The notes under the pieces: model-generated
The model's database searches: none
The model's input: only the letters and a program-made list of their open reading frames with translations
What the model was told of the DNA's origin: nothing
In this document: piece after piece, positions 232-5,665 of the stretch
Layout of the letters: every line of letters starts with the position of its first letter
How positions within the stretch are numbered: the stretch's first letter is position 1
DNA from: Acidobacteria bacterium Mor1
GTDB taxonomy: Bacteria; Acidobacteriota; Polarisedimenticolia; Polarisedimenticolales; Polarisedimenticolaceae
DNA length: 32,000 nt
Assembly: GCA_001664505.1 (NCBI GenBank)
Contig: CP011806.1
Span: forward strand, 2,285,661-2,317,660
Reading direction: 5' to 3'
Made by a program: the position numbers and the translations under genes

Positions 232-1212
232 CTACCTCAACTTCTTCAGAGCGGACTTCGCCTTGTCCACGTCGTTGATCGCGACCGCCTGTTCCAGGTG
301 CTTGCGCGCCTTCGACACATCTCCTTTGCGGGCGTGAATCTCCCCCAGCCGGTAGTGCGCGTAGGCCAGCAGCGGCTTGTCGTCGGAACCGGCGGCGATG
401 AAGCGCTCCAGCGAAGCGATCCCCTTCGGCACCTGCACCTTGCCGACGTGGGCCACCTTTCCGATCAGGTAGTGGCAGCCCATGTTCTCGGGATCCGTCT
501 CGACACAGCGTTCGAAGGTGGCGATGGCCGCGCCGTAGGCCCTGTCGGCAATCTGCATGTTGCCGCGCATGATCAACGCGTCCCCGTGCCCCGGTTCCAG
601 GCTCAGCGCCTTCTCCAACTTCGCCTTCGCCCCCTTCGGGTTCTTCTCCGCCTGATCGACCCGGGCCTCGTAGACCAGGACATCCGACAGACTGAGGCCG
701 GGGAACTCCCGAATCAGCCGTCGCGCCTCATCCTTGCTTCCTCCGCCCAGGGCCGGCGCGTTGAGATGGAAGCGGATCAACCGTTTGCGGGCCCCGGCGT
801 CTTGGGGCCGAAGCGCGACGGAATGCTCCATCGCCTGCTTCATCTTCTTGCCGACTCCGCGCTTGCGCAGCAGGCTGACCTTCGCCACATGCTGCTGGTA
901 GCACTCGACGAGCAGCTCGGAGACCTCGAAGGTGTCCTCGCCCTGCTTCTGTGCGGCGACCAGCAGATCGATGGCGGGCGCGTACTTCTCGGCATCCATC
1001 AGTTCCTGGGCTCTCCGCGCCGTGGCGGAGCGCACGGCAGGATCCCTTGACTCTTCGGCTGCGGCCTCCGATTCGGCGACTTCCCAGCCCGCTAACCTGC
1101 TCGCTCCGAGGGCTGCGCTGGGCAAGGGAACCTGGAGGACAAAAAGCACCAGGAGCCAACTGGCCACATGCGACTGCAATTCAGATCGTCCTGCTTTCGA
1201 TGTCGTGGTCAT
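232..1212 (-). CDS. secreted TPR-repeat protein
   Basis: 326-aa ORF with ATG at 1212..1210. It has an N-terminal signal-like hydrophobic segment (WLLVLFVLQVPLPSAALGA). TPR-like units are present, e.g. YGAAIATFERCVETDPEN and AYAHYRLGEIHARKGDVSKARKHLEQAVAIN. The overlapping alternative-frame ORFs are Arg/Gly/Pro-rich. Confidence 0.75.
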   Translation of the reverse strand: MTTTSKAGRSELQSHVASWLLVLFVLQVPLPSAALGASRLAGWEVAESEAAAEESRDPAVRSATARRAQELMDAEKYAPAIDLLVAAQKQGEDTFEVSELLVECYQQHVAKVSLLRKRGVGKKMKQAMEHSVALRPQDAGARKRLIRFHLNAPALGGGSKDEARRLIREFPGLSLSDVLVYEARVDQAEKNPKGAKAKLEKALSLEPGHGDALIMRGNMQIADRAYGAAIATFERCVETDPENMGCHYLIGKVAHVGKVQVPKGIASLERFIAAGSDDKPLLAYAHYRLGEIHARKGDVSKARKHLEQAVAINDVDKAKSALKKLR

Positions 1213-1496
1213 GTCAGAGAGAACGACACATCACGCCCATGGGTTCCCTAAATCAGAAACTCAAACCACGCTGCAAGGCTGAGCCAGGCTTTGCACAACT
1301 GCGCATTCAGCTAGCTCTGGACGCGCAACTCAGGTGCCCAAAACGCCATTCCCGGCTCGCGCACAAGGCCCACAAAGCGCACCGGCGACGTGCTTTGTAG
1401 GCCTCCCGTCTCCTGATAGCATAGACGGTAGAGTTTGCCCCTGAGTTCTCGAAGCTCGAACGCTCGAGTACCCTCTCTGCAAGCGCGAGGTTGAGA

Positions 1497-4400
1497 ATGA
1501 CTACCCCTGAGACTGGCCGAAGCGCCTCGAAACGGGACACTTGCCCGCACTGCGGCGTTCCCTTACCGCCACCTGGTACATGGTTTCCATTGTTGATTCT
1601 GGCGCCTTGGAACGTTGGCCAGATCCTCTCGCTGCTGTTGGGTGACACGCTGACCGCTCCGTGCGAGAACTGTGGAAAAAACCTTAAAACTCCAGCTGTT
1701 GCAGCCCTGCAACTCGAGAACCCATCTAGAGCCATCCTGGTTCCCACCGGCACGAGCACGGCGCTACCAACTGTGATGGAACAGGCGCTCCAGTCGCTTC
1801 GCAGCGAAGGTGAACAGGCGACTTCCCGTCCTGCCGTCGTGGTCGAAAACACCGAACACGCAACTCAGGAAATCCGCCAGCACGTCCTCTATTTCAAACC
1901 CGTCCTTCGGCAATTGTTCGAGGCCATTCGGGCAGATCGAACCGCGGAGTTCACGTCGCACCGATGGCGAGAACTCACGCCGTCTGCGTTCGCAGCAGCC
2001 CTCATTGCTTCCTCGGGCCTCGTGCGTGGAATCGGCGTGGACTCTTACTCACCAGACACCCACACCCGTGCTAGTTTCTGGGAAACCCACGAGGCAATTC
2101 GCCATCAGCTCGCACCAGTGCAACTCATGACGTGGGCCGCGCTTTCCTCCGAGCCCTGCACTCCTGACGAGACTTTGAGCGAGAGACTGTCAACCCACAT
2201 AAACCCCTTTCAGCTGCCAAGAGTCGTCGAACACATGGAATCTCTAGCCAAGAAATCCCTCGACTCGCCGGAGTTCTCATGGCTGCAGCGGTACGCGACC
2301 TTGGCGACAGCGGTCAGCTCCATTGCGAATGCAGGCAAAGAGACTGAACTCAGAGTGCCTTGGGCGCTTTACTTTCTGGAATTCGAGATCCTCCTACGTG
2401 ATCCGGATGCAGCTCCACTTCAACCTTTGCAACTATCGCCACACCAAGTCAACAGAACCATCGGAGACGTCGAACTCTGGAACGCGATTACGCACAAGAT
2501 CTCTACAGCGCTAGAGACGACCGACCGCGAATTGTCACCTAGCCCGGAAGAGCTCATCGCCTCGGTTCTCGAGGTCGGAACCCGCCTCTCGCGATCGCAG
2601 TTAGTTGAAGACACCCTCGCCAGTATCCGCGTTTCTTTCTCCGGAACGGCCACAGAGGACTTCGTGCTTGGATACACGACCAGACTCCTGAAGCCTCGGG
2701 TAGACCCAAGTGGTCTTGGCTCCATTCTCAAATGGCTATCTCATGCGGTGCTGGAACGTCGAGGCGCTGAACTGATTGAAAAGATCGCCGCCCGTGCCAT
2801 CGCACGGTACCCCGGGGACCGGCGATACGAAGCTACGGTTGATGCCTGGTACGGCGAGATGATGAAAGTCCTTAGACACCCGAGCGCATACCTCGAACGA
2901 GTCGGCTCGTTCCCCAGGCCATGGGAAGCCGCCTTGCCGTTCGCCTTACAGGTATCCCTGGAGAATGAACGCAGCAATTCGCTCCGGATTCTCGGAGAAA
3001 AAAAGGAGGCGCTCGAGCGCACGGAACAAATCATCGCTCGATTCGATAGCCAGGATAAATCACTTCTCGAGCAACTCGATGGAGATCGCCGTATCCTCGA
3101 ACGGAACCGCGCCATTCTGCTAAGGGAGACAGGAAGAGTCGACGCTGCCATCCCCCTGATGCTTGGACTTCTTGAGAGCGCACCGCTTCGCGAAAAACAC
3201 GACCTTCTCACGTCTCTCGGCGTCTCGTATGGAGAAGCAGGGCGTTTCGCAGAGGCTGCATCCTCTTTCAAGGAGGCGCTCGATGTCGCCCCGCAGGACC
3301 CGAGGCTCACACATAGGGCCAAACTCCATCTCGCCCAGGCCCTGATTGCAGACGGGCAGCATACCCTTGCAGCAACATTGATACTTGGCTCAGATCCAGG
3401 CGAGGTCCAAACTCCGGAAACCACCGTCATCGAGGCTGCGGTCTGGACAAACCTTCTGGTCACCAAGACCAGCCTGCCCGCTGAGGCGCAGGAACAAGCA
3501 AACCGGTCCCTTCGGGTGGCGCTGGACTTGGCGGAGTCACCTGAGATCAAGAAAGACTACGCGGCATATTTGGGGTTACTTGAGCTCGCGTTTACCATCA
3601 AGCTCTTGACGAAGGACCCGACTGCGGAAGAGAGCTTGCGGTTGCTACTGGCGCATTCTGGAGCGAAGCACCGCACCCCTGAACCAAAGTACCTAGCTGA
3701 CCTTGCTAGCATCCAGTACCGAAAAAAAGACCTTGAGCAAGCACGGGCAACGATGTCGCGAATACCGGGCGCCCTCGCATCGCATTTCGGCGAGATCCAG
3801 CGCACGGATATCGCCGCGGGCAGCACGACTCAACTCTCTTGGTCACTGGAGCATCTCGGAAGCGCAGTGACGGAAGACGAATGCAAGTGGCCGGATGTCC
3901 GCTGGGTAGCAGAGTTGTCGCGAGATGCCATAGGGCTTGCGAGAACACACCGTCAACCCAGAAAAGAAGCGACAGCTACGACAATCGAAGGCCCGATCCC
4001 CGACAGCGCTCTCGTGCCACTCGCTCCTGCTCACGGCACGCTTCTTGTCCTAGAGTGGATCCACACGTCTTCTGGCCTTCGTGCGATGTTGAGCAGTATT
4101 TCCCACGACGAGAACGTAGAGACCCAGCTACTCCCAGACCCAGGCGTAGACCTACTCAGCCTTCAACAGCGCATCCTATCCAGATTGAACTTCTGGTTCG
4201 GTAGTAGGCCTGGCGACCCGTTCGACATACCGGAGTGGCAGCGAATCCGCGATTGGCTATGCAAGGCAGCCTGTGCGTTCGAGCCCCCTATCCACTTGGT
4301 AGTCATCGAGCATCGAGTGGGCGTCGGTATTCCTTGGCACGTGGCGATCGCGGCTCACGGAACTTGCTCGTACGCTCCTAGCTGGAGGACTTTGCTGCAG

Positions 4401-5054
4401 ATACAGCAGAATGAGCGCACCGCCCCCGAATCACTGGGCACAATGAGCGTACCCCGTTTTGGAGAGTCTCGCCCTATCCGTGAGGCGCTCTCAAAATCCG
4501 CCACACGAACGAAGAAATGGGCTACCACGACTCGAATTGATCTAACTACGCACAACGATATCGAAGGCACCAAGGACTCATTCCGCGCGATAATGAGCGA
4601 AATGGACGTCGCAAAAGTTGCATGCCACGGGTACCTCGAGGAGGGAACTCTTGAGATCGCCCTCGCGCTTAGCAGCAAAGGAGCGCTACCGCCGCTTCGA
4701 GGCAGTATGACTTCATCTGATTTCAGATTAGATTGGAAGGACTGCCAAGGCCTGAGTCGCTCCTCGCCAGTGGTGTTCAGCTCCGCTTGCTCAAGCGGCA
4801 GGACTTGGAGGCGTGGCGCCGGAGAGCCGCTGGGTTTCTACGGAGCGCTTCGCCATAGCGGCACCGTTGCGCTTGTAGCACCGCGATGGGATACTGATGC
4901 CGAGGTAGTGATTCCTATCCTTGACGAGGCGTGCGAGCGATACTGCAGTGGGGAGCCTCTCGCCGACTCCGTTTGGCTCGCTTGCTCCGGAGCTGCTCAA
5001 GAACACGATGACTGGCGAGTCTGGCCGCTCGCGATACAAGGAGATTGGCGATGA
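1497..5054 (+). CDS. large CHAT-domain (caspase-fold) protease with N-terminal CxxC..CxxC zinc ribbon and central TPR-like helical repeats
   Basis: The track ORF starts at TTG 1491. I prefer ATG 1497, which is preceded by GAGG (1487..1490) with a 6-nt spacer. The C-terminal ~350 aa matches the CHAT pattern: VAKVACHGY (His codon 4626..4628), then SSPVVFSSACSSG (Cys codon 4788..4790), then GALRHSGTVALVAPRWDTDAEV. The N-terminus has CPHCG and CENCG (nt 1542..1673). The middle has TPR-like units, e.g. LGVSYGEAGRFAEAASSFKEALDVAP. No P-loop was seen. GC is visibly lower than in the flanks. Confidence 0.85.
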   Translation: MTTPETGRSASKRDTCPHCGVPLPPPGTWFPLLILAPWNVGQILSLLLGDTLTAPCENCGKNLKTPAVAALQLENPSRAILVPTGTSTALPTVMEQALQSLRSEGEQATSRPAVVVENTEHATQEIRQHVLYFKPVLRQLFEAIRADRTAEFTSHRWRELTPSAFAAALIASSGLVRGIGVDSYSPDTHTRASFWETHEAIRHQLAPVQLMTWAALSSEPCTPDETLSERLSTHINPFQLPRVVEHMESLAKKSLDSPEFSWLQRYATLATAVSSIANAGKETELRVPWALYFLEFEILLRDPDAAPLQPLQLSPHQVNRTIGDVELWNAITHKISTALETTDRELSPSPEELIASVLEVGTRLSRSQLVEDTLASIRVSFSGTATEDFVLGYTTRLLKPRVDPSGLGSILKWLSHAVLERRGAELIEKIAARAIARYPGDRRYEATVDAWYGEMMKVLRHPSAYLERVGSFPRPWEAALPFALQVSLENERSNSLRILGEKKEALERTEQIIARFDSQDKSLLEQLDGDRRILERNRAILLRETGRVDAAIPLMLGLLESAPLREKHDLLTSLGVSYGEAGRFAEAASSFKEALDVAPQDPRLTHRAKLHLAQALIADGQHTLAATLILGSDPGEVQTPETTVIEAAVWTNLLVTKTSLPAEAQEQANRSLRVALDLAESPEIKKDYAAYLGLLELAFTIKLLTKDPTAEESLRLLLAHSGAKHRTPEPKYLADLASIQYRKKDLEQARATMSRIPGALASHFGEIQRTDIAAGSTTQLSWSLEHLGSAVTEDECKWPDVRWVAELSRDAIGLARTHRQPRKEATATTIEGPIPDSALVPLAPAHGTLLVLEWIHTSSGLRAMLSSISHDENVETQLLPDPGVDLLSLQQRILSRLNFWFGSRPGDPFDIPEWQRIRDWLCKAACAFEPPIHLVVIEHRVGVGIPWHVAIAAHGTCSYAPSWRTLLQIQQNERTAPESLGTMSVPRFGESRPIREALSKSATRTKKWATTTRIDLTTHNDIEGTKDSFRAIMSEMDVAKVACHGYLEEGTLEIALALSSKGALPPLRGSMTSSDFRLDWKDCQGLSRSSPVVFSSACSSGRTWRRGAGEPLGFYGALRHSGTVALVAPRWDTDAEVVIPILDEACERYCSGEPLADSVWLACSGAAQEHDDWRVWPLAIQGDWR

Positions 5055-5539
5055 GCGACACTCTCTCTGACTTCCTTAACCACGTAGCACCCAACGACGA
5101 GGTGCTCGAGGGAGCGTTCGTCGCCTACGTCAGGTCACAAACTTCCGATCTCGACGCGGAACAGATGAAGCAGGTGCTCCTGAGGCGGATCGATGTCACA
5201 ACCTTCGAGAACGGGCAACGGGCACTGCAAGGCGCTTTGAGTAACCGACAAGACGCAATACTCCTTTACCTGAGCAGAGACTGGACCGACCCGGAGAAGC
5301 GCCCACTCATCCAAGGAGCCTTCGAGGATTCATCGAAGAAGCTCTTCGCCTTGGAGTCGGTTCTCGTCGCTACGGTATCGATGTACGCCATGTATCTGGT
5401 GGCAACTGGCGGACTTCGAAGCGAGACTGTTTCCACTACCCGCAACGCAGACGGAAGCTACACGACAACCGTATCCCGTGAGTGGGCCCCATCGAGCACT
5501 CTCGCACGGCTTTGGAAGGCCCTGACGACGGAGGAGTGA
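5051..5539 (+). CDS. small single-pass membrane protein of unknown function, translationally coupled to the CHAT protease gene
   Basis: The track starts at TTG 5045. ATG 5051 is preceded by AAGGAG (5038..5043) with a 7-nt spacer, and it overlaps the CHAT stop (TGA 5052..5054) as ATGA. The 162-aa protein has a ~100-aa polar N-terminal part, one hydrophobic helix (LFALESVLVATVSMYAMYLVATGGL) and a Ser/Thr-rich tail. I recognise no family. Confidence 0.65.
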   Translation: MSDTLSDFLNHVAPNDEVLEGAFVAYVRSQTSDLDAEQMKQVLLRRIDVTTFENGQRALQGALSNRQDAILLYLSRDWTDPEKRPLIQGAFEDSSKKLFALESVLVATVSMYAMYLVATGGLRSETVSTTRNADGSYTTTVSREWAPSSTLARLWKALTTEE

Positions 5540-5554
5540 CGACCAACCCGCTCC

Positions 5555-5578
5555 GTTCCTAGCTGCCGTCTAAGGAAC
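5555..5578. terminator. weak hairpin between convergent genes (possible terminator)
   Basis: GTTCCTAG (5555..5562) can pair with CTaAGGAAC (5570..5578), giving an 8-bp stem with one bulge and a 7-nt loop. There is no U-tract. It lies between the small-protein stop (5539) and the GH92 stop (5666). Confidence 0.25.
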
Positions 5579-5665
5579 AGACGCTTGCCAAGCGCTGGCT
5601 GGCCGGCCTCCGGATTGGCGTATCCTGCGAACCAACGACTTCAACCCCTCGTATGACGAGAGAAC

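Follow-up and report, generated by a model that had tools for sequence, protein, structure and literature searches.

The 32,000-nucleotide stretch analysed here (hereafter the window; Acidobacteria bacterium Mor1, contig CP011806.1, positions 2,285,661 to 2,317,660 of the forward strand) carries on its plus strand a cassette of two genes: a large CHAT protease gene (1497-5054; protein P0002, 1185 amino acids counted from the ATG at 1497) and a small gene that overlaps its 3' end (5051-5539; protein P0001, 162 amino acids). Our analysis indicates that the small open reading frame (ORF) is, judged from its homologues, a genuine gene of a conserved and so far nameless family, which is defined here by HMMER. 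In the loci examined, this family appears solely directly behind the genes of one subfamily of separase/DdvA-like TPR-CHAT proteases. The partnership of the small protein with the CHAT protease is therefore well supported by comparison of loci, and we infer that the small protein is the substrate or effector of this protease. Furthermore, comparison with other genomes indicates that the cassette is self-contained, horizontally mobile and sporadically distributed.

Fifteen distinct loci were examined, and in each of them the small gene immediately follows, on the same strand, the 3' end of the gene for a full-length protease homologue. These loci were reached from both sides, by seven look-ups starting from the small protein and through eight loci starting from the protease. 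For each of the seven look-ups, all of which had upstream sequence, the gene directly 5' encodes a protein of 907-1176 amino acids that either matches the CHAT or TPR models of Pfam or can be aligned with P0002 from end to end. From the other side, a metagenome scan with the protease yielded eight loci, six of them new, and a hidden Markov model of the small family matches the next downstream ORF in every one. The pair has the same arrangement in G418, the other genome of the phylum that carries it. Moreover, loci whose proteases are more alike also tend to have more similar small proteins (correlation of pairwise identities, r=0.92, a value driven for the most part by the two closest pairs). 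The first-pass annotation of this DNA, which was made from the sequence alone, had taken the small protein for a likely partner of the CHAT protease. The adjacency of its homologues to a CHAT gene in 15 loci out of 15, the conserved junction described below and this parallel divergence bear it out. A conserved third gene was sought among the loci of the relatives and none was found.

The junction between the two genes is compact. The Shine-Dalgarno sequence AAGGAG (5038-5043, plus strand) is located within the final codons of the CHAT gene and is followed by a spacer of 7 nucleotides (ATTGGCG, 5044-5050) and by the ATG of the small gene (5051-5053). This start codon shares 4 nucleotides (ATGA, 5051-5054, plus strand) with the TGA stop of the CHAT gene (5052-5054). 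These elements, as well as the ORF of 162 codons, had all been called in the first-pass annotation and are confirmed by reading the sequence. The ATGA overlap was found in nine loci read as DNA, where it is preceded by GAAGGnGAyTGG(C/A)G, which encodes E-G-D-W-R. Further junctions show an overlap of 8 nucleotides (one locus) or a gap of about 10-22 nucleotides with a Shine-Dalgarno sequence of its own (four loci). Since L049, L050 and L053, three of the four loci with a gap, keep the C-terminal E-G-D-W-R/Q of the protease, this motif is a feature of the protein on which the Shine-Dalgarno sequence rides.

Spurious long ORFs are frequent in GC-rich genomes, and a word-indexed search with the small protein retrieved no relative, the query matching itself alone. 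One could thus suspect that 5051-5539 is a chance ORF rather than a gene. This suspicion was rejected, and we regard it as almost certainly wrong: the protein has homologues in 135 clusters, most of them aligned over their full length, the synteny of the pair is kept in every locus, the GC content by codon position (0.58/0.45/0.69) is coding-like, and this frame is the single open one among six across the stretch, the other five being closed.

Word-indexed searches being blind to these relatives, an exhaustive HMMER scan was required. Among 1.84 billion representatives, it recovered 135 proteins at E<=1e-3, including 29 at E<=1e-10; in nearly all cases the length lies between 155-190 amino acids and the alignment spans most of the protein. 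In an alignment of 50 sequences (A1), Leu9, Trp78, Pro99, Glu102, Tyr112, Leu116 and Gly135 are near-invariant, and the consensus core reads K-L-P-V-I-E, then a hydrophobic run with M-Y-G-M-Y-L, then T-G-G and later D-G. The AlphaFold2 model of the small protein, built from 13 sequences (predicted local distance difference test, pLDDT, 83), shows five N-terminal helices, a long helix (residues 84-119), a beta-hairpin (122-145) and a short C-terminal helix.

Three parts can be delimited on this basis, all encoded on the plus strand. Residues 1-97 (5051-5341) would form an acidic helical N-domain, made of the five helices and the start of the long one, as suggested by the model, the charge and the near-invariant Trp78. 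Residues 98-121 (5342-5413), a hydrophobic helix that ends at T-G-G and is a candidate transmembrane segment according to conservation and hydropathy, are the best-conserved part of the family (2.9 bits per column versus about 2.0 elsewhere). Residues 122-162 and the stop codon (5414-5539) cover, from the model and the alignment, the predicted hairpin 122-145, with the conserved Asp134-Gly135 at its turn (near-invariant in the family), and a helix at 148-159. The first-pass annotation had seen in this last region a tail rich in Ser and Thr. This is correct for the window copy, in which 15 of the 40 residues from 123 to 162 are Ser or Thr, but not for the family, in which the region is usually basic and predicted to form the beta-hairpin and then the short helix, the Ser/Thr richness being unique to the window copy.

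The absence of any recognisable family, which had also been stated from the sequence alone, holds across all the resources searched. Pfam gave no convincing match in 50 members (the window protein and 49 relatives; cut-off E<=0.05), NCBIfam and PADLOC gave none for the members tested, and the profile of the small family retrieved nothing significant among PDB sequences. Likewise, a Foldseek comparison of the model of the small protein yielded no significant match in either PDB, where the best E was 0.39, or BFVD, where it was 0.07. A match to the antitoxin EndoAI (E 0.049) and MADS-box-like matches, all weak and non-significant, were discarded as chance. Some members of the family are longer. 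P0128 (242 amino acids) has an additional C-terminal peptidoglycan-binding domain (PG_binding_1, E 7e-16), and P0133 (352 amino acids) and P0127 (291 amino acids) have C-terminal extensions of about 100-190 amino acids that are apparently related to each other and that have no Pfam, other family or PDB match.

The upstream protein belongs to the TPR-CHAT protease family. Pfam CHAT (PF12770) matches residues 956-1161 of P0002 with 38.3 bits (gathering cut-off 24), and TPR models match it too. The protein consists of an N-terminal zinc ribbon (CxxC...CxxC, CpXC-like), a helical region, TPR repeats and the C-terminal CHAT domain. Its full-length homologues share 24-35% identity with it and conserve the N-terminal CxxC pairs; across 11 homologues, no substitution is seen at His1046 (C-H-G motif) or Cys1100 (A-C-S-S-G motif), and the Gly and Trp of the C-terminal GDWR motif are likewise invariant among the protease homologues. 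Its AlphaFold2 model (pLDDT 77.5) was compared with PDB by Foldseek, which found DdvA (E 2.5e-13), separases (about 1e-12) and Csx29 (E 1.9e-7), that is to say a fold of the separase/craspase type; at the level of sequence, the profile of the protease family reached TPR proteins alone in PDB, and a word-indexed search with the protease returned only the protease itself, apart from one weak TPR match. The genome carries 21 CHAT genes, the one of the window being the most divergent and having the lowest CHAT score.

The start of the protease gene deserves a comment. The ORF lister begins at TTG 1491, and the database gene call (P0003, 1092 amino acids) begins 95 codons later. As the upstream CxxC...CxxC ribbon is conserved in homologues, P0003 is judged too short, and the true start is most likely the ATG at 1497, which has GAGG upstream. 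A hydrophobic stretch lies between the two CxxC pairs (within 1491-1775); it is confined to the window copy and is not conserved in homologues. Lacking a conserved hydrophobic segment, the protease is presumably cytoplasmic. At one metagenomic locus (L039:281-3877), an in-frame stop (1049-1051) divides the CHAT gene into two ORFs (281-1051 and 1052-3877) that both match the protease profile, next to an intact small gene; the explanation is either that the gene has decayed to a pseudogene or that the assembly is wrong.

The two genes are alone on a low-GC insertion of about 4.4 kb (1255-5665). The GC content of this island is 58.1%, compared with 66.8% for the genome. In G001, a genome of the same genus (contig C58, locus L030), the TPR gene lies about 95 nucleotides beyond the GH92 gene, whereas in the window these two genes flank the cassette and are 4.4 kb apart. 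G001 therefore has the empty site, and its homology with the window resumes at 1234-1254 on one side and at the stop of the GH92 gene (5666) on the other side. No terminal repeats of at least 8 nucleotides were detected at the ends of the island. The small protein was found in none of 60 related genomes, and neither was the protease, TPR matches aside. Across the phylum, two of 401 genomes have the small family, the window's own and G418. Moreover, a pattern search in 185,579 species representatives, based on the protease alignment (A3) and a tight alignment of the small protein (A4), found nothing; the cassette thus seems to be absent from these representatives or too divergent to be detected in them. 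Taken together, the empty site, the difference in GC content (58% versus 67%) and the sporadic distribution argue for the mobility of the cassette.

Several observations concern the surroundings of the cassette, here and elsewhere. A GC-rich palindrome (5581-5595), 42 nucleotides past the stop of the small gene, seems to be the terminator belonging to the convergent GH92 gene, since a T-run is present beyond it on the minus strand only. It belongs to the inserted DNA, G001 having instead a different hairpin-plus-T-run terminator at this place. In G418 (locus L048, G418:C22:105500-114500), a distant cassette is found beside genes encoding an ArdC-N/IrrE-M78 protein, a methyltransferase and a helix-turn-helix regulator, a setting that is mobile-element-like; the N-terminus of its protease matches Pfam CpXC (E 6e-8). 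Another neighbourhood includes transposase fragments and a NACHT NTPase. On a metagenome contig of 480 kb (L053:914-3132), the genes in front of the cassette encode an HNH endonuclease and a CHAT protein of 401 amino acids, the latter matching in part the BovA model of the Borvo system in PADLOC (E 2.8e-18).

The small protein is, from its hydropathy profile, likely to be a membrane protein. The hydrophobic segment extends approximately from residue 98 to residue 122. Its Kyte-Doolittle peak over 19 residues is 1.67 in the window copy, for a usual threshold of 1.6; over the family the median peak is 1.86, and the peak is above 1.6 in 85% of the members. On the Hessa scale, a simple sum has a marginal family median of +1.9 kcal/mol. 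A single-pass membrane protein, as first proposed, is thus plausible as far as the hydrophobic helix is concerned, but is not established, as the topology signals are opposed. The N-domain is large, acidic (net charge -6 in the window copy, family median -9) and devoid of signal peptide, and it is therefore expected to remain cytoplasmic. Of 111 members, 78 are more basic on the flank that follows the helix than on the one that precedes it, hence the C-terminus is expected inside. By contrast, the C-terminal PG_binding_1 domain of P0128, which is of a periplasmic type, leads one to expect the C-terminus outside.

Our preferred interpretation, which we hold tentatively and with slightly less than even confidence, is that the cassette is a conflict module associating a sensor-protease with a membrane effector, the small protein being the substrate of the protease. 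The two proteins would be made in fixed proportion and would form a complex. The zinc-ribbon, helical and TPR part of the protease would act as the sensor of a trigger, which would most likely be a phage or another mobile element entering the cell, and the activated CHAT domain would then cut the small protein. This cut would free the hydrophobic helix and the hairpin, which could insert or oligomerise in the cytoplasmic membrane, and the ensuing damage to the membrane would halt the infected cell. That the protease is active is supported by the invariant His1046 and Cys1100 and by its fold matches with DdvA, separase and Csx29. A membrane element is supported by the hydrophobic helix, which is the best-conserved part of the small protein and whose hydropathy is high in the family (Kyte-Doolittle median 1.86), and by the fusion with a peptidoglycan-binding domain in P0128. 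Also in favour of this interpretation are the sporadic and mobile distribution and the neighbours of the cassette elsewhere, which include ArdC/M78, methyltransferase, transposase, NACHT, HNH and BovA-like proteins.

The conflicting topology signals are also a reason to consider that insertion is conditional and depends on cleavage. In this more specific version of the conflict module, which we find rather improbable, cleavage upstream of the helix would release a pore-former whose fold is unrelated to that of gasdermins and that is switched on by a separase-like protease. The large acidic N-domain, having no signal peptide, would be unable to cross the membrane and would thereby keep the hydrophobic helix, which the TPR superhelix of the protease made alongside it might also cover, from entering the bilayer. 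A cut just upstream of the helix would leave the new N-terminus outside and the basic hairpin inside, in agreement with the charge bias, and the inserted helices could oligomerise into a lesion.

Several findings weigh against the conflict module with a cleaved membrane effector. The window copy has lost residues that are kept in 80-92% of the members (Pro99 is replaced by Phe, Arg24 by Val and Glu29 by Ser), and its hydropathy (1.67) is marginal. In the model, helix 84-119 runs without interruption from the N-domain into the hydrophobic segment, and inspection of the alignment for a separase-type ExxR site, a conserved flexible linker or a cleavage motif revealed none of these. Furthermore, the signals given by the acidic N-domain, the basic flank and the P0128 fusion contradict each other, and the neighbourhoods of the cassette are heterogeneous, a single locus (L053) adjoining a known defence gene.

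An alternative that we consider possible, and less probable than a cleaved effector, is that the small protein does not kill but acts as a stoichiometric inhibitor, a chaperone or a membrane tether of the protease. It would bind the TPR superhelix or the active site while the protease is synthesised, the real substrates being other proteins of the cell or of the phage. The nearest folds of the protease, separase and DdvA, are consistent with this role, since separase has a small co-expressed protein, securin, that holds it (PMC11506125). Tight translational coupling suits a 1:1 complex, and type II modules in which the toxin gene comes first are known, the match with the antitoxin EndoAI being weak and non-significant. 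However, securin is a disordered pseudosubstrate whereas the small protein is predicted to be folded; the feature that is most conserved is a hydrophobic membrane-like helix and not an extended peptide, and no pseudosubstrate motif was found. It is also conceivable, although unlikely, that the window copy is non-functional or that the cassette has an envelope or housekeeping role. Indeed, the window copy of the small protein is the most divergent of its family (at most 38% identity with any relative) and lacks the three conserved residues mentioned above, its tail is rich in Ser and Thr instead of basic, which might also reflect repurposing, and its protease has the lowest CHAT score among the 21 of the genome. 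Nevertheless, both frames are intact and the catalytic dyad, Trp78, Glu102, Tyr112, Asp134-Gly135, the Shine-Dalgarno sequence and the ATGA overlap are all retained, and a sporadic distribution by horizontal transfer would be unusual for housekeeping genes.

The first-pass annotation had also proposed that the small protein could be a tether comparable to an anti-sigma factor or to Csx30. In such a reading, cleavage of the membrane-anchored protein would release its helical N-domain or a bound factor and thereby alter transcription instead of killing the cell. The other CHAT genes of the genome give some weight to this proposal. Six of these 20 genes are followed, in tight coupling, by one for a single-pass membrane protein of 260-281 amino acids, and two of the six downstream proteins match zf-HC2 (E 3e-8 and 1.5e-12). 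Of the 21 CHAT genes, at least nine have an extracytoplasmic function (ECF) sigma gene at a distance of about 5 kb or less, and in Myxococcus xanthus, DdvA (PDB 8rw5/8rot) combines an anti-sigma factor with TPR-CHAT in one fusion protein (PMC11506125). However, no Sigma70_r2 gene is found within about 35 kb of the window cassette, the nearest ones lying about 35-40 kb away from the island, and the relatives have no conserved third gene. Moreover, zf-HC2 is not matched at E<=0.05 by any of the 50 members searched with Pfam, the 50 best PDB fold matches listed contain no anti-sigma domain, and homology with the anti-sigma-like partners of the paralogous CHAT genes was rejected (hhalign probability 0.35%). 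With neither a sigma gene nor a cas gene on the island, the tether receives no direct support and appears quite unlikely, more so than decay or a housekeeping role.

These six coupled genes merit a description of their own. They are located in L057 (1871-2689, minus strand), L058 (5275-6102, plus strand), L059 (4888-5670, plus strand), L060 (2098-2883, minus strand), L061 (1930-2727, minus strand) and L062 (5487-6332, plus strand), and they are joined to the CHAT gene by a stop/start overlap of 4 nucleotides in five cases and by a gap of 5 nucleotides in the remaining one. Four of the encoded proteins constitute a family of their own (A5), one having a weak zf-HC2 match. An example of a neighbouring sigma gene (Sigma70_r2) is G000:C1:3144294-3144485, by the CHAT gene at 3139723-3144006. 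This suggests that the organism has many sigma/CHAT modules of the DdvS/DdvA type. A CHAT gene followed by a gene for a small single-pass membrane protein is thus a recurring design in this genome, which hints at a broader rule.

In organisms ranging from bacteria to animals, decisions on cell fate are driven by CHAT and caspase-fold proteases, as exemplified by separase, Craspase and the activation of gasdermins. To our knowledge, substrates have been identified for very few of the bacterial TPR-CHAT proteases. Hence, the cassette is of interest as a minimal two-gene system in which strict co-inheritance points to a likely substrate or regulator of such a protease, with a partner family that has neither a name nor a structural relative. 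A search of the literature found no description of this pair of a CHAT protease and a small protein. If the small protein is indeed a membrane effector activated by proteolysis, it would be a new type of effector in bacterial abortive infection, and the cassette would offer a tractable model for the restraint of separase-like proteases.

Among known systems, the type III-E Craspase associates Cas7-11 with the TPR-CHAT protease Csx29, which, once activated, cuts the dedicated co-encoded protein Csx30. The cassette shares with it a protease related in fold to Csx29 (E 1.9e-7) and a dedicated co-encoded protein. It differs in the absence of Cas7-11, CRISPR array, Csx31 and RpoE, and its partner protein is much smaller than Csx30 and unrelated to it by sequence and fold. 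Bacterial gasdermins, which are encoded next to a caspase-like or CHAT protease, are pore-forming proteins whose domain, rich in beta-sheets, is about 240-270 amino acids long. The logic proposed for the cassette is similar, with two parts, a protease and a membrane-acting protein, sporadically present on mobile DNA, and the position of the activating protease is filled by the CHAT gene, adjacent in 15 of the 15 loci. By contrast, the partner has 162 amino acids and is mostly helical with a single hairpin, and the protease gene comes first. That the small protein is not a gasdermin, as had been noted from its size and layout, is corroborated by the absence of gasdermin matches in Pfam for the 50 members and among the PDB fold matches listed.

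DdvA and separase, the top fold matches, have in common with the cassette protease a helical/TPR scaffold, a C-terminal CHAT domain of caspase fold and the His-Cys dyad, and separase, too, has a dedicated small partner. However, their sequence identity with the cassette protease is about 12%, and the latter has an N-terminal zinc ribbon, no conserved hydrophobic segment and no associated sigma gene; securin is disordered and soluble, whereas the prediction for the cassette partner is a folded protein that includes a hydrophobic helix. The anti-phage system Borvo consists of a single gene encoding a CHAT protease, BovA, implicated in abortive defence (cited in bioRxiv 10.1101/2024.10.26.620412). 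The PADLOC model of BovA matches neither P0002 nor five relatives, and Borvo has no small partner. Finally, Trypco1 and Trypco2 are small proteins that adjoin trypsin-like peptidases (Kaur et al. 2020, PMC7159879). The resemblance with the cassette lies in a small protein, of unknown fold, whose gene strictly accompanies that of a conflict-system peptidase. However, none of the 50 members matches the Trypco models of Pfam (E<=0.05), the peptidase has a CHAT/caspase fold and not a trypsin fold, and the cassette includes no vWA-MoxR or STAND core. While it is a member of none of these families, the cassette can thus be viewed, by analogy, as resembling the protease-gasdermin, trypsin-Trypco and Craspase-Csx30 systems in its logic.

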